This document shows, piece after piece, positions 6,859 through 54,730 of a stretch of 64,000 nt of DNA (its first letter is position 1; every line of letters begins with the position of its first letter). The translations under genes were made by a program, and so were the position numbers. The stretch spans positions 82,283-146,282 of the forward strand of contig CAZSUC010000002.1 of NCBI GenBank assembly GCA_964610055.1. Reading direction: 5' to 3'. Below the pieces are notes generated by a model, which searched no databases, was not told where the DNA came from, and worked only from the letters and a program-made list of their open reading frames with translations. The stretch is from an uncultured Candidatus Saccharibacteria bacterium. Lineage in GTDB: Bacteria; Patescibacteriota; Andersenbacteria; UBA10190.

Positions 6859-8586
6859 ATGGCTAACAATGAGGTAGTCCAGGTCGTAAAAGTACTGCTT
6901 GAAGCAGGCAGATTAAATGAAGAGCAAGCCAAAACGGCTGAGGCGGCAATTGGTGGTGGTCGAGGTGGGTATGACGTATTAGTCGGAGGGCAGTTGGTTG
7001 ATGAGGAGGCATACACTCAGGCTGTGGCACAAGTATTACAGGTACCATATATTTCGTTAAAAGGAGTTGCGATTTCTCGAGATGTGTTAAACGTGATTCC
7101 AGAATCAACTGCACGGGAACATTCAATTGTTGCTTATGAACAAGATGAAAGCAGCTTAAAAGTAGCAATGTTGGATCCGAGTGATCGTCAGATTGTGGAA
7201 TTTATACATAAAAAAGTAGATCAGCCAGTAACAGTAGCACTGGCAAGTGCTACGAGTATTAAGTGGGCGTTAGCTCAATATCGTGAAAGCTTAGAAGCGG
7301 AACTACAAAAGATACTGCAACAGTCTTCAGCTGGAATGGACGTAACGGATGATTTGAATAAAATTGCGGAAGATTTGCCGGTGGTGCGAACAGTTGACTT
7401 GATGTTGAGACACGCGATTTTACAGGGAGCGTCGGATATTCATATTGAGCCGTTAGAAGATAAGGTAGTAATTCGGTTTCGGGTGGATGGTTTGTTAAGG
7501 GATGTTCTATCGTTACCGAAAACATTTTTGGCGGGGTTGGTCGCTCGAATTAAAGTGTTAGCACATTTGAAGATTGACGAGCATCGTTTGCCTCAGGACG
7601 GCAGATTTAAAATCCAGTCTGATGATTATAAAGTGGCGTTTCGTGTGTCAGTGTTGCCAGTATACGACGGCGAAAAGTTAGTCATGCGTTTGTTGGATGA
7701 GTCGGGTAAAGGATTGGTGTTGGATTTATTAGGAATGAGACCAGATGTATTAGACGTATTTCGTCGTAATGTCCAAAAGCCTCACGGTATGATCTTAGTA
7801 ACAGGGCCAACTGGGTCTGGTAAAACTACGACTTTGTACGCCGCAATGAAGGAATTGAATGTGCCAGAGGTCAATATTAGTACGATTGAAGATCCAATTG
7901 AATATCGCATGCCAAGAGTTAACCAAACGCAGGTGAATCCTCAAATTGGATTAACTTTTGCATCGGGGTTACGAGCTTTAGTGCGTCAGGATCCGGACAT
8001 TATTATGGTTGGTGAAATTCGAGATGAAGAAACAGCCTCGTTAGCAATTAATGCTGCTTTAACAGGTCATTTGGTGCTATCTACTTTACACACTAATAGT
8101 GCATCTGGTGCATTACCGCGGTTGTTGGATATGGGGGTAGAAGCGTTCTTGGTGGCGTCGACGGCTAATTTATTGTTGGCCCAACGATTGGTGCGGCAAT
8201 TATGCAAGGATTGTCGGCAAGCAGCTAAAATTGATGAAAAAGTTTTGGCGGATGTTTTGAAGTTAGTCAGTGAAGAAAGATTAACAAGTGTTTTGCATCA
8301 GGAAGGCGTGTTAAAGGAAGGACAGAACTTGAAAGATATAGAAGTCTATCAGCCGGTGGGATGCAGTGTGTGTGGCGACGGGTATAAGGGGCGAGTTGGG
8401 ATATATGAAGTAATTGAAATGACAGATGAATTACGGGAGATGGTTTCAGAGAAAACAACTTCTCAGGATCTAGAAAACCTGGCCAAGACTCAACAGAAAA
8501 TGACCACGATGTTTGAAGATGGGTTTATAAAAGTGATGGCAGGTGAAACTTCGATTGCGGAAATCTTACGCGTAGCTAAGGAATAG
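6859..8586 (+). CDS. pilB: type IV pilus assembly ATPase (GspE/PilB family)
   Basis: N-terminal GSPII_E_N domain, Walker A GPTGSGKTTT, and a tetracysteine motif CKDC...CSVCGDG. Confidence 0.9.
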   Translation: MANNEVVQVVKVLLEAGRLNEEQAKTAEAAIGGGRGGYDVLVGGQLVDEEAYTQAVAQVLQVPYISLKGVAISRDVLNVIPESTAREHSIVAYEQDESSLKVAMLDPSDRQIVEFIHKKVDQPVTVALASATSIKWALAQYRESLEAELQKILQQSSAGMDVTDDLNKIAEDLPVVRTVDLMLRHAILQGASDIHIEPLEDKVVIRFRVDGLLRDVLSLPKTFLAGLVARIKVLAHLKIDEHRLPQDGRFKIQSDDYKVAFRVSVLPVYDGEKLVMRLLDESGKGLVLDLLGMRPDVLDVFRRNVQKPHGMILVTGPTGSGKTTTLYAAMKELNVPEVNISTIEDPIEYRMPRVNQTQVNPQIGLTFASGLRALVRQDPDIIMVGEIRDEETASLAINAALTGHLVLSTLHTNSASGALPRLLDMGVEAFLVASTANLLLAQRLVRQLCKDCRQAAKIDEKVLADVLKLVSEERLTSVLHQEGVLKEGQNLKDIEVYQPVGCSVCGDGYKGRVGIYEVIEMTDELREMVSEKTTSQDLENLAKTQQKMTTMFEDGFIKVMAGETSIAEILRVAKE

Positions 8587-8587
8587 T

Positions 8588-9805
8588 ATGTCCATTTTTG
8601 CATATCAGGGCAGAGATGAAAAAACAGGCGAGGTCGTATCGGGAATGCGAGAGGCGCCTAATCATGCGCAGCTAGGTCAAGATCTATTACAAGATGGGAT
8701 TTTATTAACTCGATATTCATTACAGAAAAAGCAGAGGCGCGGTGCGACTTTATGGGAATCGGTTTTTGAAAGAGTGCCATTGTTGGAGAAGATATTGTTT
8801 ACGCGATATTTTGCTTTGATGTTACGCGCCGGATTAGATGTTAAGCAGTCCTTACAAGCTTTGAGCGAGCAGACTAGGAATAAGTTTTTGAAAAAAGCAA
8901 TTGAGGGAATTATGCAGGCAGTTGATCGCGGGGTGGGGCTGTCAGATGCAATGAGAAATTATCCTATGTCGTTTTCTGATTTATTTATTAGTTTTGTGCG
9001 GGTAGGTGAGAGCACTGGTCGTTTGCAAGAGTCATTGTCAGTGTTATCGATTCAGATGCAGAAGGAGTATAACTTAAGGCGAGCGGTACGTGGTGGTTTG
9101 ATGTATCCCCTGGTAATTGTTGTTGTTTTAGTGGTGGTGGCGTTTGCGATGCTTGTATTTGTAGTACCGAAGTTGGCAGAAGTGTTTGAAGGGTTTGATG
9201 TAGAATTGCCATTAACAACAAGAATTTTAATAGCAGTTGGTGCTTTTTTTGAAGTGTATTGGTGGCTAGTGATTATTGGGGCAGTTATTTTAGGATCAAT
9301 TATCTGGATGTTAATGCTGGTGGATAAGGTTAAAGGCGGAGTGATGCATGCATTATTATTTATGCCAATTGTCGGTCCAATCATGAAACAAGTAAATTTA
9401 GCGCGATTCTCGCGTAATTTAAGCTCATTGCTACAGAGCGGAGTAAACTTTGTGGATGCTTTAGGAATTATGGGTGAGAATACGGCTCACCATAGTTATG
9501 CGCGAGTGTTATTAGGGGCGAGGGAGCATGTTCGGAAAGGTAAATCGTTGAGTGAATATCTGGCGGGACATGAGCGACTTTTTCCCCCGTTAGTTGTAAA
9601 TGTAGTTAAAGTTGGTGAGGAGACAGGGGCGTTAGATGAAGTGTTACGTGAGATTGCTTTGTTTTATGAAGAAGAAGTGGATCAGGTGATGAAGAATCTG
9701 ACGTCGGTAATGGAGCCAGTTTTGATGGTTGTGATTGGAATTGCAGTGGGGGCACTGGCGATTGCGGTTATCTCGCCGATTTATGGGTTGGTCAATGTTA
9801 TTTAA
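8588..9805 (+). CDS. pilC: type IV pilus platform protein (GspF/PilC family)
   Basis: Two T2SF domains and three TM segments. Its stop overlaps the start of the next gene (ATGTTATTTAA). Confidence 0.9.
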   Translation: MSIFAYQGRDEKTGEVVSGMREAPNHAQLGQDLLQDGILLTRYSLQKKQRRGATLWESVFERVPLLEKILFTRYFALMLRAGLDVKQSLQALSEQTRNKFLKKAIEGIMQAVDRGVGLSDAMRNYPMSFSDLFISFVRVGESTGRLQESLSVLSIQMQKEYNLRRAVRGGLMYPLVIVVVLVVVAFAMLVFVVPKLAEVFEGFDVELPLTTRILIAVGAFFEVYWWLVIIGAVILGSIIWMLMLVDKVKGGVMHALLFMPIVGPIMKQVNLARFSRNLSSLLQSGVNFVDALGIMGENTAHHSYARVLLGAREHVRKGKSLSEYLAGHERLFPPLVVNVVKVGEETGALDEVLREIALFYEEEVDQVMKNLTSVMEPVLMVVIGIAVGALAIAVISPIYGLVNVI

Positions 9806-11294
9806 TGAAAGTCGGACTAATGGGTTAACGCTGATCGAGGTTCTGTTAGCCACGGTTATTATTGGGATTATTGCGGTAGGAGCGTCAAATTTATTTTTGC
9901 TATCTATGCGGAGTTCACAGGAGGCGGAACGAAGAGTGGTGGCGATTGCGTTAGCAAATGAACGAATGGAAATGATTAGAAATTTGCCGTATGAGAACGT
10001 CGGTACGATAGGTGGGATACCGTCAGGCGCAATTGCGCAGGCAGAGACTATCACAAGAAACTCAATCAATTATGAAGTCAAAACAGAGGTGCGATATGTA
10101 GATGACGTATATGATGGTTCGGCGAGTGGGTCAACGGAAGAGGAGGATTTTATTATAATTTGTCATATTCCACCTGGACATCCGGAAAATCAGACGACAA
10201 TTAGAGTCGCAGCTTCAGCGTTGGATGCTCATTTAGCGCATGGTGATTACACGGGAGCCTGTGGCTCTGGCGGCGGTGATGGTACTGATGAAGGAGATGA
10301 TTATAACGGAGATTATAAATTGGCGCGGGTTGAGGTTGATTGGGCGAGCCAGTATGAGACTCAACCCGTACTTTTAATGACTTATATTGCACCAAAAGGA
10401 ATTGAGGGAGGTAGTCTAAGCGGAACATTAGACTTACAGATTGCATCAGCCGAAGGAGTGGGGATTGCGGAAGCAGATGTAGAGATTATTAGCGATCAAA
10501 CTGATCCGACAATTGATATTACAACCGAAACAAATGCGGAGGGGCGAGTAGTTATGCCTGGTTTTCCGGAAATGGCAGAAGCGTACCAAGTAATAGTGCA
10601 CAAGGACGGATATACGAGCGAACAAACTTATGCTGCAACTGATGATTTTTTACCTGATGCCGAACATACAAATTTGACGATGTTGGTGCAGCAAGTGACT
10701 TCTAAGTTGCTATTTATTGATTTGGTGGCACAAGTTGAATTAAAAACAGTTGACGCTGAGGGAGTAGTGATTGGAAATGTGCCGTATCATTGGCAAGGCG
10801 AGAAAACAATTGGACAAAATATTGATGAAGAGGGAAATACGACCGATGTGTATAAATTTGATCAAGATGGAACCACGGATCAGGCTGGCATAGCTTCTTT
10901 AGAAGACTTGGAGTGGGATACATATTCTATGTCCATTCCAGCCGAGAGTGGTTATATCGTAAAAGAATATTGGCCAGTGCATCCGTTTCAGATTGATCCG
11001 GGAACAGATACCGATGTAGAAGTAGTGTTAGTGCCGTATACGGATTATTCAGTGCAAGTAACAGTATTAGATTTGACGGGGGTGCCAGTGGATAATGCAA
11101 CGGTTCGTTTGGAAAAGGATGGCTTTAGCGAAGAGAATGGGACGGGTGTACGAGGTCAAGTTATATTTACTGATTTGCCTGAATTAGGAAACTATGACTT
11201 GTTTGTCGATGTGGGCAACTATGAGACTTATTCGCAAACAGTTCAAGTGTCAGGCAATGAAACGGTACAGGTATCATTAACTCCAGTAGTCTAA
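9795..11294 (+). CDS. large pilin-like protein with a class III (prepilin) signal peptide and CarboxypepD_reg/Ig-like beta domains
   Basis: Start chosen at the internal ATG (MLFNESRTNG|LTLIEVLLATVIIGI). Prepilin signature G/LTLIE with Glu+5. C-terminal repeats such as ATVRLEKDGF...GQVIFTDLPELGNYDL resemble carboxypeptidase-regulatory-like folds. Confidence 0.7.
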   Translation: MLFNESRTNGLTLIEVLLATVIIGIIAVGASNLFLLSMRSSQEAERRVVAIALANERMEMIRNLPYENVGTIGGIPSGAIAQAETITRNSINYEVKTEVRYVDDVYDGSASGSTEEEDFIIICHIPPGHPENQTTIRVAASALDAHLAHGDYTGACGSGGGDGTDEGDDYNGDYKLARVEVDWASQYETQPVLLMTYIAPKGIEGGSLSGTLDLQIASAEGVGIAEADVEIISDQTDPTIDITTETNAEGRVVMPGFPEMAEAYQVIVHKDGYTSEQTYAATDDFLPDAEHTNLTMLVQQVTSKLLFIDLVAQVELKTVDAEGVVIGNVPYHWQGEKTIGQNIDEEGNTTDVYKFDQDGTTDQAGIASLEDLEWDTYSMSIPAESGYIVKEYWPVHPFQIDPGTDTDVEVVLVPYTDYSVQVTVLDLTGVPVDNATVRLEKDGFSEENGTGVRGQVIFTDLPELGNYDLFVDVGNYETYSQTVQVSGNETVQVSLTPVV

Positions 11295-11297
11295 GGT

Positions 11298-11906
11298 ATG
11301 GAAAAAGGCTTTACAGTTATTGAAGTGGTGGTTGTTTTAGGTATTACTTCGGTTTTGATTACGGCCTTGTTGCGATTTGTAGCAGCTGGGTATCCTTTAT
11401 CGCGAGTGACATATTTGCAGCAGCGCTCAACTGAAACAGCGAGATTGCAATTAAAGCGGATCGCAAAAGCAATTAGAGAAGCGCGTCCATCGGATGCGGG
11501 TGCTTATCCGCTAGTAGAAATGGAGGATCAGAAATTAGTTTTTTATGCTGATGTTGATGACGACGGGGCGACAGAAATGGTGCGATATGAATTAGACGGG
11601 ACAGATTTAATTTATGGGATTATTGAGCCGTCCGGAGATCCGATTGAATATGACCCTGGGAGTGAAATTACGAGAATTGTGACTCATGATGTACGGAATG
11701 GATTTGATCCTATTTTTGTATATTACTCAGGTGATTATCCAGACGATCAAACTCCTCTAACTCCGGTTGATGTAACTGAGGTGAAATATATTCAGTTTGC
11801 ACTGGTAATTGATGTAAATCCGGATGTGGATCCGCAGCCGATTCAGGTTATTTCACAGGTTCAAATTCGAAACTTAAAAGATAATTTAGGCGACACAGTA
11901 GAATAG
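11298..11906 (+). CDS. pilin/pseudopilin with a prepilin-type N-terminal cleavage/methylation domain
   Basis: MEKG|FTVIEVVVVLGITSVL is a canonical class III signal with Glu+5. It is 202 aa long and has no Cys. Confidence 0.75.
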   Translation: MEKGFTVIEVVVVLGITSVLITALLRFVAAGYPLSRVTYLQQRSTETARLQLKRIAKAIREARPSDAGAYPLVEMEDQKLVFYADVDDDGATEMVRYELDGTDLIYGIIEPSGDPIEYDPGSEITRIVTHDVRNGFDPIFVYYSGDYPDDQTPLTPVDVTEVKYIQFALVIDVNPDVDPQPIQVISQVQIRNLKDNLGDTVE

Positions 11907-11952
11907 GTGAGCTCTTGTCAGGTGAGTTAAATGGCTTTTAAGATAGAGGGAT

Positions 11953-13320
11953 ATGAAAAAGCCTGATCAAATAATAATTGTGTTTCTGCTAGCGGTGGGG
12001 ATCTTGGTGCATTTTATTGGTTTGAAGTATCCGGACCAGGTTGTCTTTGATGAAGTCCATTTTGGTAAATTTGTCACTGCTTATTGTTGTACGCATCAAA
12101 ATTTTTTTGATATTCATCCACCGCATGCCAAGTTGCTAATTGCAGGGGCGGCTTGGTTGGGTGGCTATCGGGGTGGTTTTTCGTTTGATCATATTGGTCA
12201 GGAATATGCGGAAGTGCCAATTGAAGCGTTAAGATTTATCCCAGCTTTGGCGGGGTCGATTTTAGCAGCAATTATATATGGTTTGTTACGGAAATTAGGA
12301 GTAAGTCGACAATTAGCAGTAATTAGTGGGTTGGCGGTGGTATTAGAGAATGCCACGATAGTGCAGACAAGGATGATTTCGTTGGACGGAGTGTTGTTAG
12401 TCGCTATTTTTGGAAGTCTGAGCTGCTATTTGTCAGCTGAGAAAAATAGTGGTCGGAAGAAATATTACTGGCTAGTAGGGGCGGGCGCTTTAGCCGGCTT
12501 AGCAGTCGGGACTAAATTTACAGGGCTAACAATTGTGGGGTTATTAGGAGTAATGCTTGCGGTTGAGTGGATAAAGCGGATTTATCGAAGAGAAAATTGG
12601 CGCGAAACAATACGCTCAGGGGGAGTGATAGCGATAGCAGCGATCTTAGTTTATTTAACTGGCTGGGTAATTCATTTTAGTTTGTTAGATTTACCGGGTA
12701 GCGGTGACGCGTTTCATAAAACTGATTTTTCTGAGAATGTTGTGATTGATTTTTTCCGCGAAACATACGAATTACATAAGGTTATGCTGTCAGCTAATTA
12801 TGGCTTAAAAGCAACACATGATTATGCGAGTCAGTGGTGGCAGTGGCCAATTATGCAGAGATCGGTGTTTTATTGGCAGAGCGAGGGGCGAATGATTTAT
12901 TTCTTAGGTAACCCAGCTGTTTGGCTAGGCAGCGGTTTATTGTTAGCGGTGGCCATGATTAGTGCGTTGATTTTGTTTGGGCAGAAAATACAGTCTCGCT
13001 GGGTGCAGCAAGCAAAATCGGTCCGAATTTGGATTCCAGTGATTGGTTATTTGATTGGTTATATACCATTGATGCGAGTGCCTAGGTCTTTGTTTTTGTA
13101 TCATTATTTAACTCCCTTATTGTTTGGCATCTTAACAGGAACTATATGGTTAGAGATCGTGACTAAGGACAGTCGGGATAAAAGTTGGTATCAGATTGGA
13201 ACAGGAGTGATTTTTGGCCTAATAGTTTTAGGATTCGTATGGTGGTCACCGTTAACATATGGTTGGCTAGCGCCGGATAATTGGATGAGTAATTTATTTT
13301 GGGTGCCAAGTTGGCGATAA
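11953..13320 (+). CDS. PMT/GT39-family (dolichyl-phosphate-mannose-protein mannosyltransferase-like) polyprenyl-phosphate-sugar-dependent glycosyltransferase
   Basis: VVFDEVHFGKF...FDIHPPHAKLL matches the PMT loop-1 DE motif and HPPL(A)K(L/M)L. It is a polytopic membrane protein of 455 aa. Confidence 0.65.
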   Translation: MKKPDQIIIVFLLAVGILVHFIGLKYPDQVVFDEVHFGKFVTAYCCTHQNFFDIHPPHAKLLIAGAAWLGGYRGGFSFDHIGQEYAEVPIEALRFIPALAGSILAAIIYGLLRKLGVSRQLAVISGLAVVLENATIVQTRMISLDGVLLVAIFGSLSCYLSAEKNSGRKKYYWLVGAGALAGLAVGTKFTGLTIVGLLGVMLAVEWIKRIYRRENWRETIRSGGVIAIAAILVYLTGWVIHFSLLDLPGSGDAFHKTDFSENVVIDFFRETYELHKVMLSANYGLKATHDYASQWWQWPIMQRSVFYWQSEGRMIYFLGNPAVWLGSGLLLAVAMISALILFGQKIQSRWVQQAKSVRIWIPVIGYLIGYIPLMRVPRSLFLYHYLTPLLFGILTGTIWLEIVTKDSRDKSWYQIGTGVIFGLIVLGFVWWSPLTYGWLAPDNWMSNLFWVPSWR

Positions 13321-13343
13321 TTCGGTTGTGATACAATTTAAAT

Positions 13344-14735
13344 ATGGAGGATGTGAGTTGGCGGCTTAATTGGAAGCGACGCGGCAGTTTGTTAGTCATG
13401 ACACTGGTGTTTGTGTCGATGTTTGTTGTGGTCTTTATGGCGTTGGCAGGTATGGTAAATCGAACATATCATGAGAGTGTTTTACAGGCTCAAGATGAAA
13501 CGGCTTTCCAGGTGGCGGAGGCAGGGTTGAATTATGCTCGGTGGCGTTTGGCTCATGATCCTTCAAATTTTGAGGTTGAAACTAAAGAAGTCTCTGATCC
13601 ACAAGCAGGGGTGTTAGGAGAATATCATGTTGAATTTGCAGAACCGCAAGAGGGCAGCACGATCGTGATTATTACATCGGAAGGCACGACTTCAGCGCAG
13701 CCGTCTAGAACCGTAACGTTGCAGGTACGGTATGGAAAAGCATCATTAGCTCAATATGCTTCTATTACAAATGAAGATGTGTGGTATGGCAGTGAGATAA
13801 AAGGGGCAGTTCATTCGAATGGAGGTATTCGGATGGATGGTTATTCGGATGGATTAATGACTAGTGCGAAAGAGACTTATGCATGTCAAACCTATCACGG
13901 ATGTTCTTCTCCTTATGAGACTAAACCGGGTATTTGGGGAGAAGGCGAGCGGTCGGAATTGTGGGAGTTTCCAGTTGTAGCGGTGGATTATAACTCATTA
14001 ACAATGGATTTGCTGGCAATGAAGGAAGCGGCGGTAGAAGCGGATACTTATTATGGATCATCGTCTAAATATGGGTATCAAGTAGTTTTTAATAGTAATA
14101 ATACGATGACGATTAGCAAGGTGACGCGAAAAGGGCAGAATGTGTGGTCGAAAGCACCGGGGGAAAATTATGAATATAGTTCATATGATGTTGGGCAAAC
14201 TCAAGTAATCGAAACAAAAGAAGTAGAAAGTGGGAGTATTTATTTTTTTGAAGATGATGTGTGGGTGTATGGTGAGATTCGAAGTCGGGTGACTATAGCA
14301 GCGGGAGTGTTTCCAGATCGATCTAGTACGAATGCTAGTATTATCTTGAATGGAAATATTACATATGGCGATGTGCATGATGGGTCGCGTGTATTCGCGG
14401 CAGTGGCTCAAAAAGATATATTGATTCCTTGGTCAGGTGCTCCAGATGATATGGTGTTAGAAGGCGCATTCGTGGCGCAGAATGGAGCATTTTATCGGAG
14501 ATATTATTGCCCTGGGTCATGTGGAGCAGATGCACATCGAATTAAAAATAGTTTAACGCGTTATGGCATGATCGCGAGTAATGGCGTTCCGGCAACGGCT
14601 TGGGTGAGCGGAGAGACTTTGTTAAGTGGTTTTCGAGAAGGTTCGGCTGAATATGATCCTAATTTATTGTATGCTCCACCTCCTTATTTTCCGACGAGTG
14701 GAGAATACGAGTTTATTTCTTGGGAAGAAATGTAA
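13344..14735 (+). CDS. hypothetical secreted/anchored protein in the pilus locus, with a PilX-like N-terminal hydrophobic segment and a beta-rich C-terminal domain
   Basis: N-terminus RRGSLLVMTLVFVSMFVVVFMALAGMV resembles a PilX_N minor-pilin anchor. The rest is G/S/Y-rich. Confidence 0.4.
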   Translation: MEDVSWRLNWKRRGSLLVMTLVFVSMFVVVFMALAGMVNRTYHESVLQAQDETAFQVAEAGLNYARWRLAHDPSNFEVETKEVSDPQAGVLGEYHVEFAEPQEGSTIVIITSEGTTSAQPSRTVTLQVRYGKASLAQYASITNEDVWYGSEIKGAVHSNGGIRMDGYSDGLMTSAKETYACQTYHGCSSPYETKPGIWGEGERSELWEFPVVAVDYNSLTMDLLAMKEAAVEADTYYGSSSKYGYQVVFNSNNTMTISKVTRKGQNVWSKAPGENYEYSSYDVGQTQVIETKEVESGSIYFFEDDVWVYGEIRSRVTIAAGVFPDRSSTNASIILNGNITYGDVHDGSRVFAAVAQKDILIPWSGAPDDMVLEGAFVAQNGAFYRRYYCPGSCGADAHRIKNSLTRYGMIASNGVPATAWVSGETLLSGFREGSAEYDPNLLYAPPPYFPTSGEYEFISWEEM

Positions 14736-14766
14736 AAAGAGCGGAAATACAGTATGCTAAAGAAGT

Positions 14767-15792
14767 ATGTTGGGCGTAGACATATCTGAGCGTTCGATTA
14801 AAGTTGTACGTTTGAGTAACAGCAAACGACACAAGCTGTTGGCACGAGCGTGGTGTGAAATACCGGCGGAAGCAATTCAGCATGGAGTGATAACCGAGCC
14901 AGATGTAGTGGGTAAGGCTCTGCGTCAAACAATAGAAAAGTGTGGAGTGAGATCAACGCATCAAGATGTAGTGGTGGCGTCTATACCAGAATCAGAATCT
15001 TTTTTAAGTGTAGTAGAAATTCCAGCGATGGATGAACAGGAAGTGTCGGAGGCGGTGCAATGGGAAGTAGCCCAGCATATGCCGTTTGGATTAGAGAATG
15101 TGTATTTAGATTGGCAATGGGTCAGTCCAAAAGGATCCGTAAAAAAGGATCGTCAAGAAGTGCTGGTGGGAGCAGCTGAGAAAAAAGTAGTCGATCCTTT
15201 GGTGGGGTTGTTGAATCGGTTAGGGTATGACGTGGCGGCTTTGGAGTTGGAAAGTCAAGCGATTGTGCGAGCATTGATATCAGAGGATTTATTGGATAAA
15301 CAAGGGCTATTGATGGTTGATTTAGGCGCAACTGTTACTAATGTCGTGGTGCATGACAGAGGAGCGATTCGATTTTCAGCGACGTTGAAGCGGGGAGTGC
15401 AAGCAGCGATGGCAAATTTAAATCCAGAAGAAGAGGGTTTGGTTAAAGATCCATCAGCGAAAACAAGTGAGCAAATTAGTGCTCAGTTAGAAGAGAAATT
15501 ACGTTTTCCGTTAGAGGAAATAGTGGCTGAGGTGCATGGTATTTTGGAATATTACACTGGGTTATCGACCGAGCATCGAGTGAATGAAATCTTGTTGACT
15601 GGTGGTGGAGCAAATTTACCGGGCTTGGATCGGATTTTTCAAAGATTTTTTTCTGATGTTCATTTGAGTCGTGCAAATCCATGGATCAATATTCGTTCTG
15701 CTCAGCAAAATGCAGCTCCGCTGATGAGTTTGTCAGAGTCAGTACATTATTCCACAGCGTTGGGATTGGCGCTGCGGGACGTTGTTTTTTAA
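14767..15792 (+). CDS. pilM: type IV pilus assembly protein PilM (actin-like ATPase fold), copy 1
   Basis: MLGVDISERSIKVV start typical of PilM. It is followed by NLLP-motif and PilO-like genes. Confidence 0.8.
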   Translation: MLGVDISERSIKVVRLSNSKRHKLLARAWCEIPAEAIQHGVITEPDVVGKALRQTIEKCGVRSTHQDVVVASIPESESFLSVVEIPAMDEQEVSEAVQWEVAQHMPFGLENVYLDWQWVSPKGSVKKDRQEVLVGAAEKKVVDPLVGLLNRLGYDVAALELESQAIVRALISEDLLDKQGLLMVDLGATVTNVVVHDRGAIRFSATLKRGVQAAMANLNPEEEGLVKDPSAKTSEQISAQLEEKLRFPLEEIVAEVHGILEYYTGLSTEHRVNEILLTGGGANLPGLDRIFQRFFSDVHLSRANPWINIRSAQQNAAPLMSLSESVHYSTALGLALRDVVF

Positions 15793-15805
15793 AGCCGCAG
15801 GTGCT

Positions 15806-16342
15806 ATGAAAGACGAGATTAATTTATTACCGCCACGAGCAGTTGTTACTCGTCGAAAATTAGTAGTTACGAGAAGATTGGCAAAATTAATGCGACGAGT
15901 GTTGATGGGAGAAGCTGTTTTGGCAGTCATGATTATTATTGGCTTAAATGCAAATCAGACTTTAGGAAAGATTGTAGCGCAGCAGTTTTCTGAAAGCAGT
16001 TCGAAACAATCAGAGTTGCAAACTGAGGTGAAACAATTTAATGCGTTGATACGAGATGTAAATAAGTGGCGCTCAAAGTACTCCGCATGGTCGCCGATGA
16101 TCAAAGAAATTCTGAATGCATTGCCGGAAGGAGTGCAAATTAATAGTTTAGCAGCGGGAGAAACGGGACAAATTACGGTTCAAGGCGAGTTTGAAAACGC
16201 AGAACAAATTGTGAGCTATCAGCGTAAACTAGAGCAGATATCAGGGGTGGCAAGAGTAGAAGCGCCACTAAGTAATTACTCAACAGGCAGCAATCAGCAG
16301 TTTAAGTTAATTGTGGTGTCGCAATATGAAAACGAAAAATAA
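15806..16342 (+). CDS. pilN: PilN-like inner-membrane pilus alignment protein, copy 1
   Basis: INLLPPRAVVTRRK (NLLP motif) followed by a single TM helix. Start placed at the internal ATG, because the track's start codon is TTG. Confidence 0.7.
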   Translation: MKDEINLLPPRAVVTRRKLVVTRRLAKLMRRVLMGEAVLAVMIIIGLNANQTLGKIVAQQFSESSSKQSELQTEVKQFNALIRDVNKWRSKYSAWSPMIKEILNALPEGVQINSLAAGETGQITVQGEFENAEQIVSYQRKLEQISGVARVEAPLSNYSTGSNQQFKLIVVSQYENEK

Positions 16343-16961
16343 GCAGCAATTAAATAGTTGGGCCGGGATAACACTGGGATTAGAAGTGCTGTTGATACTG
16401 GTGCTGGGAGGAGGAATTTGGTGGGGGTATAGCCAGGTGCAAACGAATCGACAAGCATACGCCCTAGGGCGGTATAAGTTGGAGAATTTGCCCAATGATT
16501 TACAAGCATGGTCGAAAGCAAATGCTGAGTTGCATCAGTACGATAGTGATTGGGAGAAGTTGGAGGCTATGCTGATTCCGATTGATAAAGCGGGGGAAAT
16601 TGTGAAGGACTTACAGAATTTAGGAGCAAAACAGCAAATTCAAGTTCAAGTTCCTGAAATCCAAGAATATATTGAGACTGATGAGAATAAACATCAGCTT
16701 AATCAATATACTGGTATGCAGGAAGTGGAGATTTCGTTTAGCGCAGTGGGCAATCCAGATGATTTAATGTTGTATTTACATGATTTAGAAGCTTTGCCGT
16801 ATGCTTTGGCGGTTCGAGAATGGCAGTTGCAAACAGGAACTAATGCAGCACGTGGCACGGTACGCGCGGCACCGGAAGCGTTAGATGGGGATGATAAAGA
16901 GACGGTCCAGCAAACCAGTGTCTTGTCTGGGAAAATTATGGTGTTGTTTGAAGAGGAATAA
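16326..16961 (+). CDS. pilO: PilO-like protein, copy 1
   Basis: Single N-terminal TM helix plus a coiled-coil/periplasmic domain, positioned after pilN. Start placed at the internal ATG, because the track's start codon is TTG. Confidence 0.55.
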   Translation: MKTKNKQQLNSWAGITLGLEVLLILVLGGGIWWGYSQVQTNRQAYALGRYKLENLPNDLQAWSKANAELHQYDSDWEKLEAMLIPIDKAGEIVKDLQNLGAKQQIQVQVPEIQEYIETDENKHQLNQYTGMQEVEISFSAVGNPDDLMLYLHDLEALPYALAVREWQLQTGTNAARGTVRAAPEALDGDDKETVQQTSVLSGKIMVLFEEE

Positions 16962-16965
16962 ATAT

Positions 16966-17283
16966 ATGTCCAAGTCCAAAAAACTAAAATGGAATAAAAA
17001 GAAGATTATGAGCCTAACATCGTATCAAGGTTGGGCTTGGCTCTTAACCAAACAAATGACATGGTTTGAGATAGTGGTTTTAATAATCTTTTTGATGTTA
17101 GGTGGTTGGTTGTATATCAAGATGTTTGTGCTATTACCGCAAGTTAACACGGAAACTTCGCAATCTGTTACGAATGTTGATCAAGATGACTTAAAAGCTG
17201 TACAGGATTGGAGCGAGGTAAAAGCTGAACAAAGAGAAGCAGGGGCGGGATTGGTGCGGGGGAAATATTTTATTGGATCATGA
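16966..17283 (+). CDS. small single-TM protein (PilP-like position), copy 1
   Basis: ATG lies 5 nt after the pilO stop. One TM helix. Shares an EQREA motif with the ORF at 19485. Confidence 0.4.
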   Translation: MSKSKKLKWNKKKIMSLTSYQGWAWLLTKQMTWFEIVVLIIFLMLGGWLYIKMFVLLPQVNTETSQSVTNVDQDDLKAVQDWSEVKAEQREAGAGLVRGKYFIGS

Positions 17284-17297
17284 TGTAAGATGACATT

Positions 17298-18344
17298 ATG
17301 GTAGGGATTGATGTATCGGAAAAATCAATAAAAGTAGTTGAGGTTTCGGATGGCCAAAACCCATCTTTACATACCGTATGTTGGTCGGCCATTAGTAATG
17401 ACATGATCAAAAATGGAGTAGTGCAAGATAAAGAAGAAATGGCACAGGCTTTGTCTTTGGCATTAGGCAAGTGCACGCCTGTACCGGTGACAGGGAAAAG
17501 GGTTGTAGTTTCGATTCCGGAATCACAGTCGTTTGTGCGAGTTCTTGATTTACCACAGATGTCAGATGAAGAAACTGACGAAGCGGTACAGTGGGCTGTG
17601 CGACATCATATTCCGTTTGATTTAGAAAGAGTGTATATAGATTGGCAGCCAGTTGGCATAGGTGGTGCGGATAATAATCGACGACAGATTTTAGTGGGGG
17701 CAGCACAAAGAATCGTTGTGGATCCGTTGTTAGAGGTGCTGGATAGTTTAAAGTTGCAAGTTGAAGCCTTGGAGTTAGAGGCGCAAGCGATTGTGCGGAG
17801 TCTATTGCCTTTTCAGGCTCAGGATGTGCAAGGAGTTTTAATTGTAGATTTAGGAGCGGAAGCGACTAACGTAATTTATTTTGATCAGGGCGCAATGCGT
17901 TTTACTACTAGTATCCGCAAAGGCGGAGAATATCTAACAGAACAGTTGGCTCAAAACTTGCGTATTCAACCCGGTTCGGCGGCTGAGAAAAAAGCATTAG
18001 TAGGAATTACTAGCGCGAGTGCGGATGATGCACAGGTGGCGGCAGTATTGCGAGGAGCGTCATTGGAAATTGTGCAACAAATTGAGCAGGTTGTACGAGA
18101 AGTGGCAGTGCCGGGAGCAAGCGACAGTGGAGTGAGGGCGATAATTTTATCTGGAGGGTCAGCTAATATGCCGGGATTAGTATCGGTTTTTAATGAAGTG
18201 TTTGTGGGGGTACCAACGCAATTAAGTAATCCTCTGATTAATTTAACAAGCGAACGAGGAGCGGTTTTGTCGGGTAATGATGCTGTGCATTTTGCAACGG
18301 CAATTGGGTTGGCTTTGCGCGAAGCATGCGAGGAGGGAAGTTGA
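17298..18344 (+). CDS. pilM: PilM, copy 2 (paralog of 14767..15792)
   Basis: MVGIDVSEKSIKVV start. Clear paralogy runs across the whole length (SIPES(Q/E)SF, DEAVQW, VDLGA). Confidence 0.8.
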   Translation: MVGIDVSEKSIKVVEVSDGQNPSLHTVCWSAISNDMIKNGVVQDKEEMAQALSLALGKCTPVPVTGKRVVVSIPESQSFVRVLDLPQMSDEETDEAVQWAVRHHIPFDLERVYIDWQPVGIGGADNNRRQILVGAAQRIVVDPLLEVLDSLKLQVEALELEAQAIVRSLLPFQAQDVQGVLIVDLGAEATNVIYFDQGAMRFTTSIRKGGEYLTEQLAQNLRIQPGSAAEKKALVGITSASADDAQVAAVLRGASLEIVQQIEQVVREVAVPGASDSGVRAIILSGGSANMPGLVSVFNEVFVGVPTQLSNPLINLTSERGAVLSGNDAVHFATAIGLALREACEEGS

Positions 18345-18350
18345 TGTTAT

Positions 18351-18929
18351 ATGCGCCAGGTTAATTTATTACCACCAGATAGAAGAACGAGATTAAAGAG
18401 ATTGGAGCTTTGGAAACAGTTGGCTCAGTCGTTGAATAAAACGGGATTAGCACTGTGGTTTATGATGTTTGTAGGCATTATTTTATTGGTATCGTTATGG
18501 ATATTATCAGTGGCAGCGGAAAGCACGACGACAATTGAATTGCAGGCTGAGGTGGCAAATTATAAAAGCATTAGGAAGGAAGTGGCGCAGCAGCGAGCGT
18601 TGCTAGAACAAGTATATGGAGTAGCAGAAAACCGGGTGGTGTGGGCGGATGTTTTTGAGCAGTTATTAAAAACAGTGCCGAGCGGAGTGCAAATGACGGC
18701 ATTCACTGGTCAGTCAGAAATTAGTGATGATGAAACTATGGCGAGCTTAGTGATACGGGGTCAAGCAGTAACACGTAATGTGCTGAAGGCATTTGAAAGT
18801 CGTTTACAAAATATTGTTCTAGTGACAGGCATTGAATCTCCGACCAGTAATTTACTTGATCGGGAGAATCCGACTTTTGAATTAAAACTACTGATCCAAC
18901 CAGCAACAACGGAGGATAATGAAGTATGA
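18351..18929 (+). CDS. pilN: PilN-like, copy 2
   Basis: VNLLPPDRR motif plus a TM helix. Confidence 0.7.
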   Translation: MRQVNLLPPDRRTRLKRLELWKQLAQSLNKTGLALWFMMFVGIILLVSLWILSVAAESTTTIELQAEVANYKSIRKEVAQQRALLEQVYGVAENRVVWADVFEQLLKTVPSGVQMTAFTGQSEISDDETMASLVIRGQAVTRNVLKAFESRLQNIVLVTGIESPTSNLLDRENPTFELKLLIQPATTEDNEV

Positions 18930-19495
18930 AAAAAGTAACGTCAGAAAAACAGGTTTTTTGGTTAGCGCTAGCGGTAATGTTTGGTTTAGTAGTGGTGCAG
19001 GTGCCAATTTGGTATGGGGTCGGTGTATTTGCTCAAAAATTATTTGACAATCGAATGATAGAACAGCAGCTATGGGTAGTCAGGCAAAGAAATGAGAGTG
19101 CATGGGAGCAGTTAACAGCACAGACGAATTATTTATCTCAATTAGATATGGTGGTGCCGAATATTAGTACGTTGGCACAAGAGATTGAGCGCATGGAACG
19201 TTTAGCGGATGAGGCTGGGATTGTGCTAAATACTAATGAAATTAAGGAAGAGGATTTGGTGGGATCGCAAGCGGGGAGTTTGTTAAAAGTGGCGAATGTG
19301 ACATTGGACTTGGTGGGTGATCCAGAGCAGCTGTTGGTTTTTCTCGGCCAATTAGAGCATTTACAAGAGTTAACTGAAGTAACAGAAATTTCATTGCGAC
19401 AATGGACGAGCGAAGCGCAAGTGACTGAAGATGGACGACAGGCTTATATTTTATCAGTACGAGTTAAGTTTTATATGCAAAATAATGGCGAATAA
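18926..19495 (+). CDS. pilO: PilO-like, copy 2
   Basis: N-terminal TM helix and coiled coil. Its start overlaps the pilN2 stop. Confidence 0.55.
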   Translation: MKKVTSEKQVFWLALAVMFGLVVVQVPIWYGVGVFAQKLFDNRMIEQQLWVVRQRNESAWEQLTAQTNYLSQLDMVVPNISTLAQEIERMERLADEAGIVLNTNEIKEEDLVGSQAGSLLKVANVTLDLVGDPEQLLVFLGQLEHLQELTEVTEISLRQWTSEAQVTEDGRQAYILSVRVKFYMQNNGE

Positions 19496-19802
19496 AGCAA
19501 AAATTAGCTGGAAGGGTTTATCCTGGCAAATGGTTGCGGATCAGGCGCAGGCCTGGGTGACGATAGTGGTGACTGCGCGCGTAACGACTATATTAGTATG
19601 GGGAATAGTTGTGATGGTAGTGATATATTTAGCGTATATGCAGGTGTGGCGTATATTAACTGGAGATTTAACATTGCCAGCAGGCGTGGTTCCGACTCAG
19701 TTAAGTGTGGATGCAGACATTTTGCAACAGATTCATGAGCAACGTGAGGCGAGAGAAGACTACATTGTGCCGGCTTTTAGAGTAGAAAATATATTACCGT
19801 AA
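19485..19802 (+). CDS. small single-TM protein (PilP-like position), copy 2
   Basis: MANKAKISW start, one TM helix, and EQREA motif. Paralog of the ORF at 16966. Confidence 0.4.
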   Translation: MANKAKISWKGLSWQMVADQAQAWVTIVVTARVTTILVWGIVVMVVIYLAYMQVWRILTGDLTLPAGVVPTQLSVDADILQQIHEQREAREDYIVPAFRVENILP

Positions 19803-20227
19803 TGAACACACAAGGGGGAAAACGAGTGTTGTTGTTTGGGACATTTGATCCAATACACGAAGGACATAGGCAGATGTTGCAAGAGGCGCGTAAATACGGT
19901 GACTGGATAATAGTGGTGGTAACGGCGGATGAAGTAGTGAAGCGACAAAAGAAACACGAACCATATCAACCAGAAGCAGAACGATGTGCGGTCGTGCGAG
20001 AAAATGGAGCAGATGAGGTGGTAGTCGGAGATCAACAGCCAGAAAAGTACCAACTTTTGCGTGAATTGGAGTATGATGTTTTGGCGTTAGGTTATGATCA
20101 GCCAGTGTCTCTAAAAGAAGCAAAATCTTTGTTAATGGAATGTGATCATTCAATGGTACAGGTAGTGCGGTTAACTGCTTTTGAACCAGAAAAATATAAA
20201 TCAAGTTTAATACGAGGGTTGAGTTAA
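19802..20227 (+). CDS. cytidylyltransferase-like nucleotidyltransferase (RibL/TagD/PPAT-like)
   Basis: LFGTFDPIHEGH (HxGH nucleotidyltransferase motif), 141 aa. Confidence 0.65.
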   Translation: MNTQGGKRVLLFGTFDPIHEGHRQMLQEARKYGDWIIVVVTADEVVKRQKKHEPYQPEAERCAVVRENGADEVVVGDQQPEKYQLLRELEYDVLALGYDQPVSLKEAKSLLMECDHSMVQVVRLTAFEPEKYKSSLIRGLS

Positions 20228-21870: not shown

Positions 21871-22281
21871 ATGACACGTTTTGCTTTAGCAGTTACAATG
21901 TTGTTTGTCATTGTAGGACTGTTGGCGGTGTTGGTGTTGTCGGCTCAAGTAGGTGGCGTAATGATGCGCAATAATGTGGTGCGGGGAGAGTATTTAGAGT
22001 TAGGAGTATTAGAACCAGTTGTGCCGGGTGTTCCCGTAACAGTGCGGTGGGAGAAAATAGACAGTATGCCAGCAGCGGAGGTGAAATTATGGTGGCGCAC
22101 AACTAAGCAAGAAGAACAAATAGGTACCGGGAATTTAGAAAATAATTCTGCTCAGGCAGTATGGCCGTGTGATAATCAAGCGCAACAAGGCACGCTGGAG
22201 ATTGCAGATGCGGAATCGGGGCAGGTATTTGGTTACCAAGAGATTACGGTGCAGGCGGCTGGACCAGAGTGTTTACCTTAA
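21871..22281 (+). CDS. hypothetical secreted/anchored protein
   Basis: N-terminal TM/signal segment. No recognised domain. Confidence 0.3.
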
Positions 22282-23210
22282 CTAAGTTCGGAGCGGAAAT
22301 ACTCGATTGTGGAAGTGAGGCCGTCGGCTAGGGAAATAGATGGTTCCCAGTTTAGGTATTGGCGAGCGCGAGAAATGTTGGGCTGGCGTTGATGGGGGTC
22401 ATCTTGTGGTAAATCCCGAAATTCGATTTTTGACTGAGATTTGGTGGCGGCAATAATTTGCTCGGCCATTTCTTTAATAGTTAGTTCTTGAGGATTACCA
22501 AGATTAAGTGGGCCGATAGTCTCGTCTTGATTCATCATTTTAATCATGCCGTCAATTAAATCGTCAACATAACAGAATGAACGGGTTTGCGAGCCATCGC
22601 CGTAAATAGTGATAGGCTCATTACGGAGCGCCTGAACGATAAAATTACTAACGACACGACCATCTTGAGGATGCATGCGTGGTCCGTAAGTATTGAAAAT
22701 ACGAATAATGCGAATGTCGACATCGTTTTGGCGATGATAGTCCATACATAAAGTTTCGGCGACACGTTTGCCTTCGTCGTAACAAGAACGAGGGCCGATT
22801 GGATTAACATTGCCCCAGTATTCTTCAGTTTGAGGATGGATTTCGGGGTCGCCGTAAATTTCAGAGGTTGATGCCTGTAAAAGACGAGCGTGAACACGTT
22901 TGGCAAGGCCAAGCATGTTAACCATGCCAACAGTAGAAGTTTTAATGGTTTTAATCGGATTGTGTTGGTAATGAATCGGAGAAGCGGGGCAAGCAAGGTT
23001 ATAAATCTGATTGACTTCGACGACTAAAGGCTCGGTAATATCGTGGCGTAGGAGTTCAAATTTAGGATGGCTGAGTAAGTGTTCAATGTTTTTTTTGCGG
23101 CCAGTAAAAAAGTTATCAGCGCAGATAATAGTATGACCCTCGTTGATAAGGCGATCGCAAAGGTGGCTGCCGAGAAATCCAGCGCCACCGGTAACTAAGA
23201 TGGTACTCAT
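22278..23210 (-). CDS. uxs: UDP-glucuronate decarboxylase (UDP-xylose synthase)
   Basis: Start placed at the internal ATG ([16 protein letters not shown]). It aligns across its full length with eukaryotic UXS1 ([26 protein letters not shown](V/I)HPQ, GPR(A/S)[15 protein letters not shown](S/A)F). Confidence 0.9.
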
Positions 23211-24816: not shown

Positions 24817-25284
24817 TTGAGCAATACTCAAGGTATGAAAGATTTGGCGTACAATAAGCGGGCAGTGTTTGATTATGACTTGCTGGAAAAGTTTGAAGGC
24901 GGGTTAAAATTGATGGGAACAGAGGTAAAATCGGTGCGAGCAGGGAATGTGAGCCTTAAAGGCGCGTTTGTGACATTGAAAGACGGAGAAGTGTGGCTGA
25001 CAAATGCGACGATTTCGCCTTGGCAGCCAGCCAATGCACCGACTGATTATGACCCAACTCAGCCCCGGAAGGTGCTTTTGAGCCGAGCCGAGATTAAGAA
25101 ATTGATTGGAGCCAAGGAAGCAAAGGGATTGACAATAGTGCCTATTAAGATGTATAATAAACGTTCACGGATTAAGTTAGAATTGGCTTTGGCACGGGGA
25201 AAGCGGCAATACGAGAAGAAAGAACAAAAGAAAGAGCATGATATTAAGCGGGATATTGACCGAATGTTAAGAGGAAAGGAATAG
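24817..25284 (+). CDS. smpB: SsrA-binding protein SmpB
   Basis: NKRAVFDYDLLEKFEGGLKLMGTEVKSVR. The track's start is TTG; the true start may be the ATG at 24835. Confidence 0.95.
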   Translation: MSNTQGMKDLAYNKRAVFDYDLLEKFEGGLKLMGTEVKSVRAGNVSLKGAFVTLKDGEVWLTNATISPWQPANAPTDYDPTQPRKVLLSRAEIKKLIGAKEAKGLTIVPIKMYNKRSRIKLELALARGKRQYEKKEQKKEHDIKRDIDRMLRGKE

Positions 25285-25326
25285 CTGGCGAGCGCTTCGG
25301 ATTACGGATATAATCGGTAATCGGAA

Positions 25327-25731
25327 GGGCATGCTAGGCCTCGATAAGATGTAGCTTTGACAATATGCGTGTCGTGAGGGGATTAGCTCACGTAAATCCC
25401 ATAGTCCAACGTTCAAGTGCAAACGTATTTCAGCGCGTGAAGACAGCATTTGCTAACGCATTTGCTACCCCTTCTTTTGCGCCTGTTGTCGCTTAATCTC
25501 GACAGCCATCGCTTCTAATCAGCCGTTGGGTTAATAAGCGGTGTCATTTCAAACGGCTCTCAAGTGTGAGTTTTATTAGTGCTAACACTTGGAAAAGCAC
25601 CAACTGATAGGTGGCTAACAGGCTTTTCTGTTTTGTAGCTGGCTAGGTACCTAAAACTTTTTAAGACAGATACGCACGTAGATTATTGTCGAATCACATT
25701 TTACACGGCGGTTCAATTCCGCCCATGTCCA
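25327..25731 (+). ncRNA. ssrA: transfer-messenger RNA (tmRNA, SsrA)
   Basis: Immediately downstream of smpB. The 5' GGGCATG pairs with the 3' CATGTCC (with a G3-U wobble) plus a discriminator A. A T-arm GGCGG-TTCAATT-CCGCC precedes the acceptor 3' strand. A candidate tag ORF (...ANAFATPSFAPVVA*) ends with TAA at 25494-25496. The CCA is not encoded. Confidence 0.7.
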
Positions 25732-25894
25732 CTGTTGTAAACAAAGCAAAAATATACCAAAACAAGGTGAGACATTTGGAATACCTTGGCATTATTACTA
25801 TCATGTTCTACTATCGTTTGTTGAGATTGTAGCATGAGTGTCCTTTTAACCTGGCTGTATTAAGCAGCCAAAACCTCTCAGCGGAGAAAGTGAA

Positions 25895-54043: not shown

Positions 54044-54730
54044 ATGAAAGCAGTTGTTTTAATGGCCGGGAAAGGCACGAGAATGGCTAAATATTATGAA
54101 GGTCCAAAGCAACTTTTGCCTGTGCAAGGTAAGCCGGTAGTTGAGCACGCCTTAGATATGTTGCCAGCAGAAATTGAGAGTCTTGTGTTTGTGGTGGGAG
54201 GACCACATGAACAAACGATTCGAGAGTATTTTAAAGCTGGTGAGTATGGTGGTCGTCCAATTGAATTTGTACAGCAAAAAGAACAATTAGGGTTAGCGCA
54301 TGCGTTTAAGACAGCTGCTCATTTATTGGAAGGACGTTGGTTGGGAATGGTTGGTGATGATATTTTTGGACCAGAGGGGATGAAGAGTTTGGTAAAAGAA
54401 CCTTTGTCAGTGTTAGCGTCACGAGTACCGAATCCACAGAATTTTGGTGTATTAGTAACGGATGAAAATGGTTATTTAGTGAAGTCAGTTGAAAAGCCCC
54501 AAGAGTTTATTTCTGATTTAGCTTGGAATGGGGCGATGGTGATGGATGAATCGTTTTTTGAATTAGAGGTAGCGCCGTCAGCGCGAGGTGAGTACGAAAC
54601 GCCAGATGTCTGGATGAAGATGATTACTGATAGAAAAGCGCAGATTAAAGTGGTGGAGGCTGATTTTTGGTTGCCAATCAATGATAAAGACCAGCTAGAA
54701 GAAGCAGAAAGAATTTTGGCGGAGAAATAG
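54044..54730 (+). CDS. sugar-phosphate nucleotidyltransferase (NTP_transferase family)
   Basis: MKAVVLMAGKGTRM (the G-x-G-T-R motif), 228 aa. Confidence 0.7.
   Translation: MKAVVLMAGKGTRMAKYYEGPKQLLPVQGKPVVEHALDMLPAEIESLVFVVGGPHEQTIREYFKAGEYGGRPIEFVQQKEQLGLAHAFKTAAHLLEGRWLGMVGDDIFGPEGMKSLVKEPLSVLASRVPNPQNFGVLVTDENGYLVKSVEKPQEFISDLAWNGAMVMDESFFELEVAPSARGEYETPDVWMKMITDRKAQIKVVEADFWLPINDKDQLEEAERILAEK

Follow-up and report, generated by a model that had tools for sequence, protein, structure and literature searches.

Among bacteria, protein O-mannosylation has so far been studied only in Actinobacteria (PMC11727336), where the described protein O-mannosyltransferases (PMTs) belong to glycosyltransferase family 39 (GT39) and include Rv1002c of Mycobacterium tuberculosis (MtPMT), Pmt of Streptomyces coelicolor, and the GT39 protein of Corynebacterium glutamicum. 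The O-glycosylation of type IV pilins has been described for other enzymes. TfpO/PilO and PglL come from a protein family other than that of the PMTs, act on the outer side of the inner membrane, and move preassembled undecaprenyl-pyrophosphate-linked oligosaccharides en bloc; tfpO adjoins the major pilin gene pilA, whereas pglL of Neisseria is unlinked to pilE. TfpW of Pseudomonas aeruginosa group IV is a polytopic glycosyltransferase-C (GT-C) enzyme, encoded in a pilin gene cluster, that modifies pilin Ser/Thr from a polyprenyl-phosphate monosaccharide donor (bioRxiv 10.1101/2020.04.19.049825). The one detailed study of Saccharibacteria pilus genetics only predicted pilin O-glycosylation and named no enzyme (PMC11623550), and our full-text literature search found no paper linking a PMT/GT39 enzyme to type IV pili or to bacteria of the Candidate Phyla Radiation (CPR). 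Here we analyze a 64,000-nucleotide stretch of DNA (the window; contig CAZSUC010000002.1 of assembly GCA_964610055.1) from an uncultured Candidatus Saccharibacteria bacterium of the Andersenbacteria lineage, in which a gene at 11953-13320 encodes a short PMT inside a type IV pilus operon. Pilus glycosylation by this PMT is plausible, and we put the chance that pilus proteins are among its substrates at about even.

The family assignment drew on profiles and on single sequences. Residues 11 to 233 of the translated open reading frame (ORF) matched the Pfam family PMT (PF02366; E 7.4e-45, 153.9 bits, cut-off 22.7), and residues 267 to 454 matched PMT_4TMC (PF16192; E 3.3e-39, 134.9 bits, cut-off 32.4); the actinobacterial Pmt proteins, likewise GT39 enzymes without MIR domains, have the same two Pfam domains. 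The motifs VVFDEVHFGKF and FDIHPPHAKLL, on which an initial annotation had based its proposal of a PMT/GT39 enzyme, are present at residues 30 to 40 and 52 to 62. When the Protein Data Bank (PDB) was searched by sequence with phmmer, the sole significant matches were fungal PMTs (E 6e-53 to 4e-29), namely Chaetomium Pmt4 (9i5k, E 6e-53), yeast Pmt1 (6p25_A, E 5e-47), yeast Pmt4 (9e61, E 5e-47), and yeast Pmt2 (E 4e-29), with 164 to 183 bits against Pmt1/Pmt4 and 105 against Pmt2. Each fungal alignment split into two stretches, and the ~200 fungal residues between them are the MIR-domain loop; no Pfam match to a MIR domain was found in the protein studied here, in whose model a short loop with a hairpin (285 to 320) is all that occupies that place. 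Against the NCBIfam equivalog for actinobacterial Pmt (NF058602) the protein scored 29.8 bits (cut-off 800), in a match confined to the C-terminal part (positions 221 to 530 only), and so it is a GT39 member and not an orthologue of the characterized bacterial enzymes. The contrast between 164 to 183 bits against single fungal Pmt1/Pmt4 sequences and 30 bits against the actinobacterial hidden Markov model suggests that the short bacterial PMT clade may be nearer to the eukaryotic PMTs than the characterized bacterial ones are.

An AlphaFold2 model, built with 45 homologues, had a predicted local distance difference test (pLDDT) score of 92.5 and a predicted template modeling (pTM) score of 0.93. 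Foldseek aligned it to ScPmt1, CtPmt4 (30% identity), ScPmt4, and ScPmt2 with template modeling (TM) scores of 0.91, 0.89, 0.87, and 0.86 (E 7e-24 to 3e-16), whereas other GT-C enzymes gave lower values (AglB, 0.50-0.55; yeast and human OST/STT3, 0.45-0.50; ArnT, 0.50-0.53, with E 2e-4 at 0.50; AftA, 0.43-0.45). Comparison with ArnT/GT83 and YfhO, which the initial annotation had named as the families that would undo its assignment, yielded no such Pfam or NCBIfam match; with the far better fit to PMT folds, an ArnT- or YfhO-type assignment was rejected. By sequence and modeled fold the ORF thus encodes a GT39 PMT in every respect apart from the eukaryotic MIR domains and the actinobacterial equivalog score. 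Within its large family the enzyme itself is unremarkable. Its closest solved relatives are the fungal and animal PMTs (ScPmt1/Pmt2, ScPmt4, and CtPmt4; POMT1/2), which differ in having ~750 to 820 aa with three MIR motifs (a lumenal beta-trefoil) and in using dolichol as the donor lipid, where a bacterial polyprenol would be expected here. The enzyme differs from actinobacterial Pmt in its distant sequence, its CPR host, its location in a type IV pilus operon, and in that no Ppm1 gene was seen nearby.

The residues that define the PMT active site are intact. The catalytic set comprises D33-E34, R94, R140-x4-D145, and R378-x2-F381, and all of these positions were invariant in 45 homologues of only 43 to 55% identity overall. 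In HMMER alignments D33, D145, R378, and F381 correspond to D74, D176, R441, and Y444 of MtPMT, which a 2025 mutational study found to be essential (PMC12331936), and to D77, D189, R649, and F652 of ScPmt1; the DE motif, D145, and R378/F381 thus have equivalents in the fungal and animal enzymes, as does R94 (ScPmt1 R138). D33-E34 in external loop 1 aligns with ScPmt1 D77-E78 and was also invariant in all outgroup clades, D145 in external loop 2 lies in an Rx4-6D motif as defined around the second essential Asp of the mycobacterial enzyme (PMC12331936), and R378-S-L-F381 in external loop 5 (the Rx2[Y/F] motif) aligns with ScPmt1 RQMF. The model further places a beta-hairpin at residues 305 to 317 (strands 305-310 and 313-317) in the latter half of the large external loop 4, the loop that holds the MIR domains in eukaryotic PMTs; the actinobacterial Pmt has a hairpin in the same place, and it has been tied to the binding of proline-rich acceptors (PMC12331936). 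W298, Y307, and W308 in this region were invariant, and Y316 nearly so. From these alignments the enzyme is predicted to be catalytic.

The PMT gene is embedded in a pilus operon (Table 1). Every gene from 6859 to 20227 is on the + strand with short gaps, and those flanking the PMT gene measure 46 nt upstream and 23 nt downstream. As the initial annotation had described, two prepilin-type genes recognized by N_methyl and TIGR02532 precede it, a pilin-like gene follows it, and pilM comes next. The upstream PilV-like pilin has a class III (prepilin) signal (G/LTLIEV), two CarboxypepD_reg (Ig-like) domains (E 2.8e-16), and matches to N_methyl (23.3 bits), TIGR02523 (PilV), and TIGR02532; the 202-aa pilin, also with a class III signal, matched TIGR02532 at 18.2 bits (cut-off 16.3) and N_methyl at 20.9 bits. 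Downstream are tandem pilMNO modules whose two PilM paralogues share 39.5% identity; in the first set PilM_2 was matched with E 1.9e-39, and PilN scored 21.8 bits, slightly below its cut-off. A search of the window revealed no major pilin; its two canonical prepilin motifs, the only ones present, belong to large proteins that resemble minor pilins. The PMT gene therefore sits within the minor-pilin (tip complex) block and not beside a major pilin. Promoter- and terminator-like consensus sites between 6000 and 22500 were no commoner than in shuffled sequence; the PMT gene is probably co-transcribed with the pil genes.

This location resembles that of TfpO or PglL, to which it had been compared, insofar as the gene lies within a pilin cluster, but its neighbors are minor and tip pilins and pglL itself is not linked to its pilin gene. 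Because tfpO and tfpW lie downstream of pilA, whereas the PMT gene is beside minor and tip pilins, the analogy to both is loose. TfpW nevertheless provides the best functional analogy. It differs in belonging to the Emb-like GT-C family, in its C-terminal TPR domain and length of 646 aa, in being encoded directly after the major pilin gene pilA, and in the sugar transferred (D-Araf, D-arabinofuranose); no sequence relationship between TfpW and the PMT was detected in this analysis.

The association of the PMT gene with pilus genes is conserved across a clade. The closest named homologues come from metagenome-assembled genomes (MAGs) of Candidatus Andersenbacteria, with 43 to 55% identity for the PMT and 52 to 67% for the tip pilin encoded next to it, so that the DNA most likely stems from an Andersenbacteria-type member of the CPR (Patescibacteria). 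Among related loci with enough flanking sequence, the order PMT, tip pilin, pilM was found in ~14 of 15 distinct Andersenbacteria-type loci (L001, L002, L016/L017, L018, L019, L025-L029, L053, L105, L107, L108, and L109); four of these (L105, L107, L108, and L109) had been drawn from tip-pilin homologues without a PMT on the same contig among the top matches. Two further loci (L030 and L082) stop within the PMT gene and have the homologue of the 202-aa pilin directly upstream, and 25 additional pairs of PMT and tip-pilin matches lay on contigs of exactly equal size. In the related loci the distance from the upstream gene to the PMT gene ranged from -4 to 61 nt and that from the PMT gene to the tip-pilin gene from -10 to 108 nt. 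The PMT gene overlapped one or both neighbors by 4 to 10 nt in L105, L108, L029, L030, and L082, and the stop of the 202-aa pilin orthologue overlapped the PMT start in L030, L082, and L105. The adjacency of PMT and tip pilin persisted while zero to five extra pilin-like genes varied upstream, and also in L105 and L107, which lack the second pilMNO set.

The product of the gene that follows is, from its model, a GspK/PilX-class minor pilin with an inserted beta-solenoid, in agreement with its earlier description as PilX-like. This 463-aa protein matched nothing in Pfam and no PDB sequence. Its confident model (pLDDT 91.9) shows an N-terminal hydrophobic helix that lacks Glu5, a pilin domain, and the inserted solenoid. 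The same architecture is found in ComZ of Thermus thermophilus, also of the GspK/PilX class, which has been proposed to cap the pilus tip (PMC6561018). The identity of the two proteins is only 12 to 15%, and ComZ is not known to be encoded next to a glycosyltransferase. The predicted tip pilin has a conserved C-terminal motif, PPP[YF]FP[TS][ST]G, and we speculate that this segment may be an acceptor.

A further feature of the operon was seen in five relatives. L016, L018, L019, L025, and L027 encode extra pilin-like proteins between the 202-aa pilin and the PMT, most of them with GFTLIE-type prepilin signals or PilX-like N-termini, that contain Pro/Thr/Ser linkers of 25 to 108 residues. Acceptor-like sequence was scored as the number of Ser, Thr, and Pro residues (S/T/P) per 20 residues, and these linkers reached 14 to 19; beyond them, a single + strand ORF in those five loci, a pilN-like gene in L019, reached 13. 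The composition of the linkers is akin to the proline-rich Ser/Thr acceptors preferred by the mycobacterial PMT (PMC12331936). The linker pilins encoded beside the PMT are the most specific hint, though an indirect one, of pilus substrates in the lineage; the set is absent from the window, and the hint does not extend to the window's own locus.

These observations are consistent with the following scheme, in which we infer the sugar, the lipid donor, the acceptors, and the effect on pilus function. The PMT would reside in the cytoplasmic membrane with its N-terminus in the cytoplasm and its active site (D33/E34 of loop 1, D145 of loop 2, and R378/F381 of loop 5) facing outside. D33 would serve as the base acting on the acceptor hydroxyl while D145 and R378 handle the lipid phosphate, and mannose would be moved from polyprenyl-phosphate-mannose, the donor also expected for actinobacterial Pmt, to Ser/Thr of polypeptides as they emerge outside the membrane. 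In this Andersenbacteria-type lineage the gene has been absorbed into the type IV pilus operon and is probably co-transcribed with those for minor pilins and the tip pilin. Since a PMT expressed from the pilus operon would find pilin-like proteins in the same membrane, these are its natural clients; made beside it and at the same time, they would be the likeliest substrates, and other surface or exported proteins with Pro/Thr-rich linkers may be further clients. A narrower version, in which the enzyme is strictly dedicated to the pilus and acts on the ComZ-like tip pilin and the Pro/Thr-linker minor pilins, appears unlikely.

Nearly as likely as pilus-protein substrates is that the gene encodes a general PMT merely located in the pilus operon. 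According to this quite possible alternative, the enzyme is a housekeeping PMT that, as actinobacterial Pmt does, modifies many exported proteins, its place in the operon is an accident of the lineage, and pilins have no special standing among its substrates, if they are modified at all. Several results weigh in its favor and against the participation of pilus proteins. The first concerns acceptors. The window's own pilins have at most 8 to 10 S/T/P in 20 and lack Pro/Thr-rich linkers. The only mucin-like stretch in the window, a Thr/Pro linker of ~55 residues (residues ~620-680) with 16 S/T/P in 20, belongs to a non-pilus protein, the 1130-aa surface protein of Table 1. Of the two surface proteins proposed earlier as substrates by virtue of S/T/P-rich linkers, this one retains its standing and the 668-aa protein at 38046 has a weak linker only (9 in 20). 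The 1130-aa protein looks like a textbook target of O-mannosylation and is unconnected with the pilus. It is a reasonable candidate substrate, which favors a general PMT over a pilin-specific one.

Gene order and phylogeny bear on the same question. The conserved Andersenbacteria block continues well past the pil genes, through a small cytidylyltransferase-like gene, PrsW, a 135-aa gene, an opposite-strand short-chain dehydrogenase/reductase (SDR) gene, rplT, rpmI, and infC, and the housekeeping part reaches infC and smpB. Because the block extends through unrelated genes, the conserved order partly reflects relatedness, and gene order alone is weak evidence. In one locus (L106) a PMT is missing, and two small opposite-strand genes precede the tip pilin and pilM. 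The synteny with pilins in relatives that the initial annotation had called for thus exists across the Andersenbacteria-type loci, but only in that clade and in a block that runs into housekeeping genes. In a neighbor-joining tree of 96 PMTs all pil-linked enzymes fell into one clade. Most other CPR-type loci (PMT 33 to 40% identity) have the PMT gene standing alone between a divergent trxB (thioredoxin reductase) and a convergent sodA (superoxide dismutase), with rpiB, rpe, a PfkB kinase gene, and fba close by; these neighbor families recur in ~26 to 38 of 80 metagenome loci (for example, L050, L085, and L096). This housekeeping context of the other CPR orthologues suggests an ancestral general role. 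The nearest outside relatives, a sister clade that includes MAGs of Deltaproteobacteria, Nitrospinales, Gallionellaceae, and Thiogranum (Proteobacteria and Nitrospinota), likewise have no pil genes. There the PMT gene has as its partner one for a polytopic membrane protein of ~620 aa (L032, L033, L034, L036, L038, L041, L043, L044, L047, and L087); neither Pfam nor a PDB sequence search gave a match for the 621-aa partner. More distant PMT-like genes (24 to 32% identity in matched segments) from MAGs labeled Saccharibacteria and from Eremiobacterota had no pil genes nearby; L015 has a single prepilin-like motif ~4.5 kb from the PMT match. With all pil-linked PMTs in one clade and other contexts outside it, the pilus linkage is a derived trait of one lineage and not of the PMT family.

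No residues set the pil-linked PMTs apart from the others at a 90%/20% contrast, and hence nothing points to a new acceptor specificity; at a looser 80%/35% contrast four conservative positions differed. A search with a sister-clade query turned up no second PMT in Andersenbacteria, a weak test in that its matches were MAGs of other phyla and shared no contigs, and the pil-linked gene may thus be the sole copy. Against a purely general role, the gene interrupts the minor-pilin block instead of bordering it, several relatives couple its translation to that of pilin genes, it keeps its place beside the tip pilin while neighboring content varies, and the pilin-like genes that flank it in five relatives are rich in Pro/Thr/Ser linkers.

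The donor pathway adds a further point against the involvement of pilus proteins. Donors of GT-C enzymes are polyprenyl-phosphate sugars, not nucleotide sugars. The expected synthase is a Ppm1/Dpm1-type enzyme of glycosyltransferase family 2 (GT2); Ppm1 makes polyprenyl-phosphate-mannose (PMC5882110). No such synthase gene was found in the 64-kb window, within 8 to 10 kb of the PMT gene in L016, L017, L018, L019, L105, L107, L108, and L109, or within ~10 kb of the tip-pilin gene in L106. The initial annotation had instead joined the PMT with UXS, UDP-glucose dehydrogenase (Ugd), and a sugar nucleotidyltransferase into a dedicated glycosylation pathway. The latter two gene calls were correct, although the nucleotidyltransferase is not clearly ManC, and the supposed UXS is a generic nucleoside diphosphate (NDP)-sugar SDR below every equivalog cut-off. 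All three genes exist, but they are generic, lie 9 to 42 kb from the PMT gene, and are scattered among tRNA synthetase and other housekeeping genes; relatives conserve the position of the SDR gene, but it is encoded on the opposite strand inside the long conserved housekeeping block. Their products do not make GT-C donors, and with no GT2 synthase nearby we rejected the dedicated pathway.

The remaining readings share a slim chance between them. It is very unlikely that the protein is a GT-C enzyme that has only the PMT scaffold and, as ArnT, Emb/Aft, or the teichoic-acid glycosylating enzymes do, glycosylates something other than protein, such as a lipid, a lipoglycan, or a polymer of the cell wall. 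Such a function would be compatible with the common GT-C fold, with the weaker structural matches to AglB/STT3, AftA, ArnT, and ALG enzymes (TM 0.43-0.55), and with the failure of our full-text search to find a characterized member of this short bacterial PMT clade; yet both PMT profiles score far over their cut-offs, the TM scores of 0.86 to 0.91 to PMTs exceed those to ArnT by a wide margin, and the elements of the peptide groove are kept (the loop-5 Rx2[FY] motif and the loop-4 hairpin with W298, Y307, W308, and Y316). That the PMT scaffold was recruited as a non-catalytic, structural or chaperone-like partner of the pilus assembly platform is less likely still, for although the gene directly precedes those for the tip pilin and pilMNO and some GT-C relatives serve as scaffolds, the invariance of the catalytic residues among such divergent sequences points to purifying selection on the active site and argues for catalysis.

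Table 1. Features of the window and, in the last five rows, of related loci (positions as numbered in each)
Feature	Position	Strand	Description
PilB-type assembly ATPase	6859-8586	+	MshEN and T2SSE (Pfam)
PilC platform protein	8588-9805	+	T2SSF (Pfam)
PilV-like minor pilin	9783-11294	+	503 aa from called start (ORF opens at 9735, 519 aa)
Minor pilin	11298-11906	+	202 aa; short leader MEKG/FTVIEV
GT39 PMT	11953-13320	+	ATG-to-stop ORF, 455 aa; without MIR domains
ComZ/GspK-class tip minor pilin	13344-14735	+	463 aa
First pilM	14767-15792	+	
First pilN-like	15806-16342	+	
First pilO-like	16326-16961	+	
Bitopic protein	16966-17283	+	105 aa
Second pilM	17298-18344	+	PilM_2 (Pfam)
Second pilN-like	18351-18929	+	
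Second pilO-like	18926-19495	+	
Bitopic protein	19485-19802	+	105 aa
NDP-sugar SDR	22278-23210		Generic; earlier called UXS; below every equivalog cut-off
Surface protein	50588-53980		1130 aa; FG-GAP/PKD/CarboxypepD_reg; internal hydrophobic segments
Sugar-1-phosphate nucleotidyltransferase	54044-54730		AglF/RmlA-like
UDP-glucose dehydrogenase	54747-56066		Ugd
Extra pilin-like set, L016	4263-7974		
Extra pilin-like set, L018	4316-7940		
Extra pilin-like set, L019	2348-7939		
Extra pilin-like set, L025	5032-7956		
Extra pilin-like set, L027	1339-2388, 3592-5763		

Several other observations were made in the window. The PilV-like pilin contains a Cys-flanked insert, CHIPPGHPENQTTIRVAASALDAHLAHGDYTGAC, encoded at 10209-10310 (residues 143-176 of the 519-aa ORF), and this motif occurred solely in this organism's copy among all loci fetched. 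Directly 3' of the pil cluster, at 19802-20227, is a small gene of the cytidylyltransferase family (141 aa), TagD-like or RfaE-domain-II-like and under the equivalog cut-offs, which follows the pil cluster in every relative having that downstream flank. In the regions 24817-25734 and 62482-63354 are smpB, which adjoins a full-length tmRNA (114 bits), and a DprA gene on the minus strand, which fits a DNA-uptake role of the pilus system. The GC skew was strongly positive over the whole of 1-64000 (+0.14 to +0.40 in 2-kb windows), with nearly all genes on the + strand, and dipped only at stretches of minus-strand genes (22-28 kb, 52-56 kb, and 60-62 kb).

Type IV pili are the main known tool of CPR bacteria (Patescibacteria) for host attachment and DNA uptake. 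What is new here is that a PMT gene is inserted, and conserved, within a pilus operon and that in relatives Pro/Thr-linker pilins are encoded beside it. The PMT in the pilus operon of a whole CPR lineage, Andersenbacteria only, is a concrete candidate for a pilin-glycosylating enzyme, and its activity would add a second bacterial group, a very distant one, to those with protein O-mannosylation. If the enzyme is merely a general PMT, the finding is a modest one, that of one more annotated family member at an unusual address. If it is dedicated to the pilus, it would be a third type of enzyme, after PglL/TfpO and TfpW, to have arrived independently at pilin O-glycosylation, would provide the first functional context for the widespread, uncharacterized short PMTs outside Actinobacteria, and would likely bear on the host attachment, DNA uptake, or phage evasion of these episymbiotic, ultrasmall bacteria.

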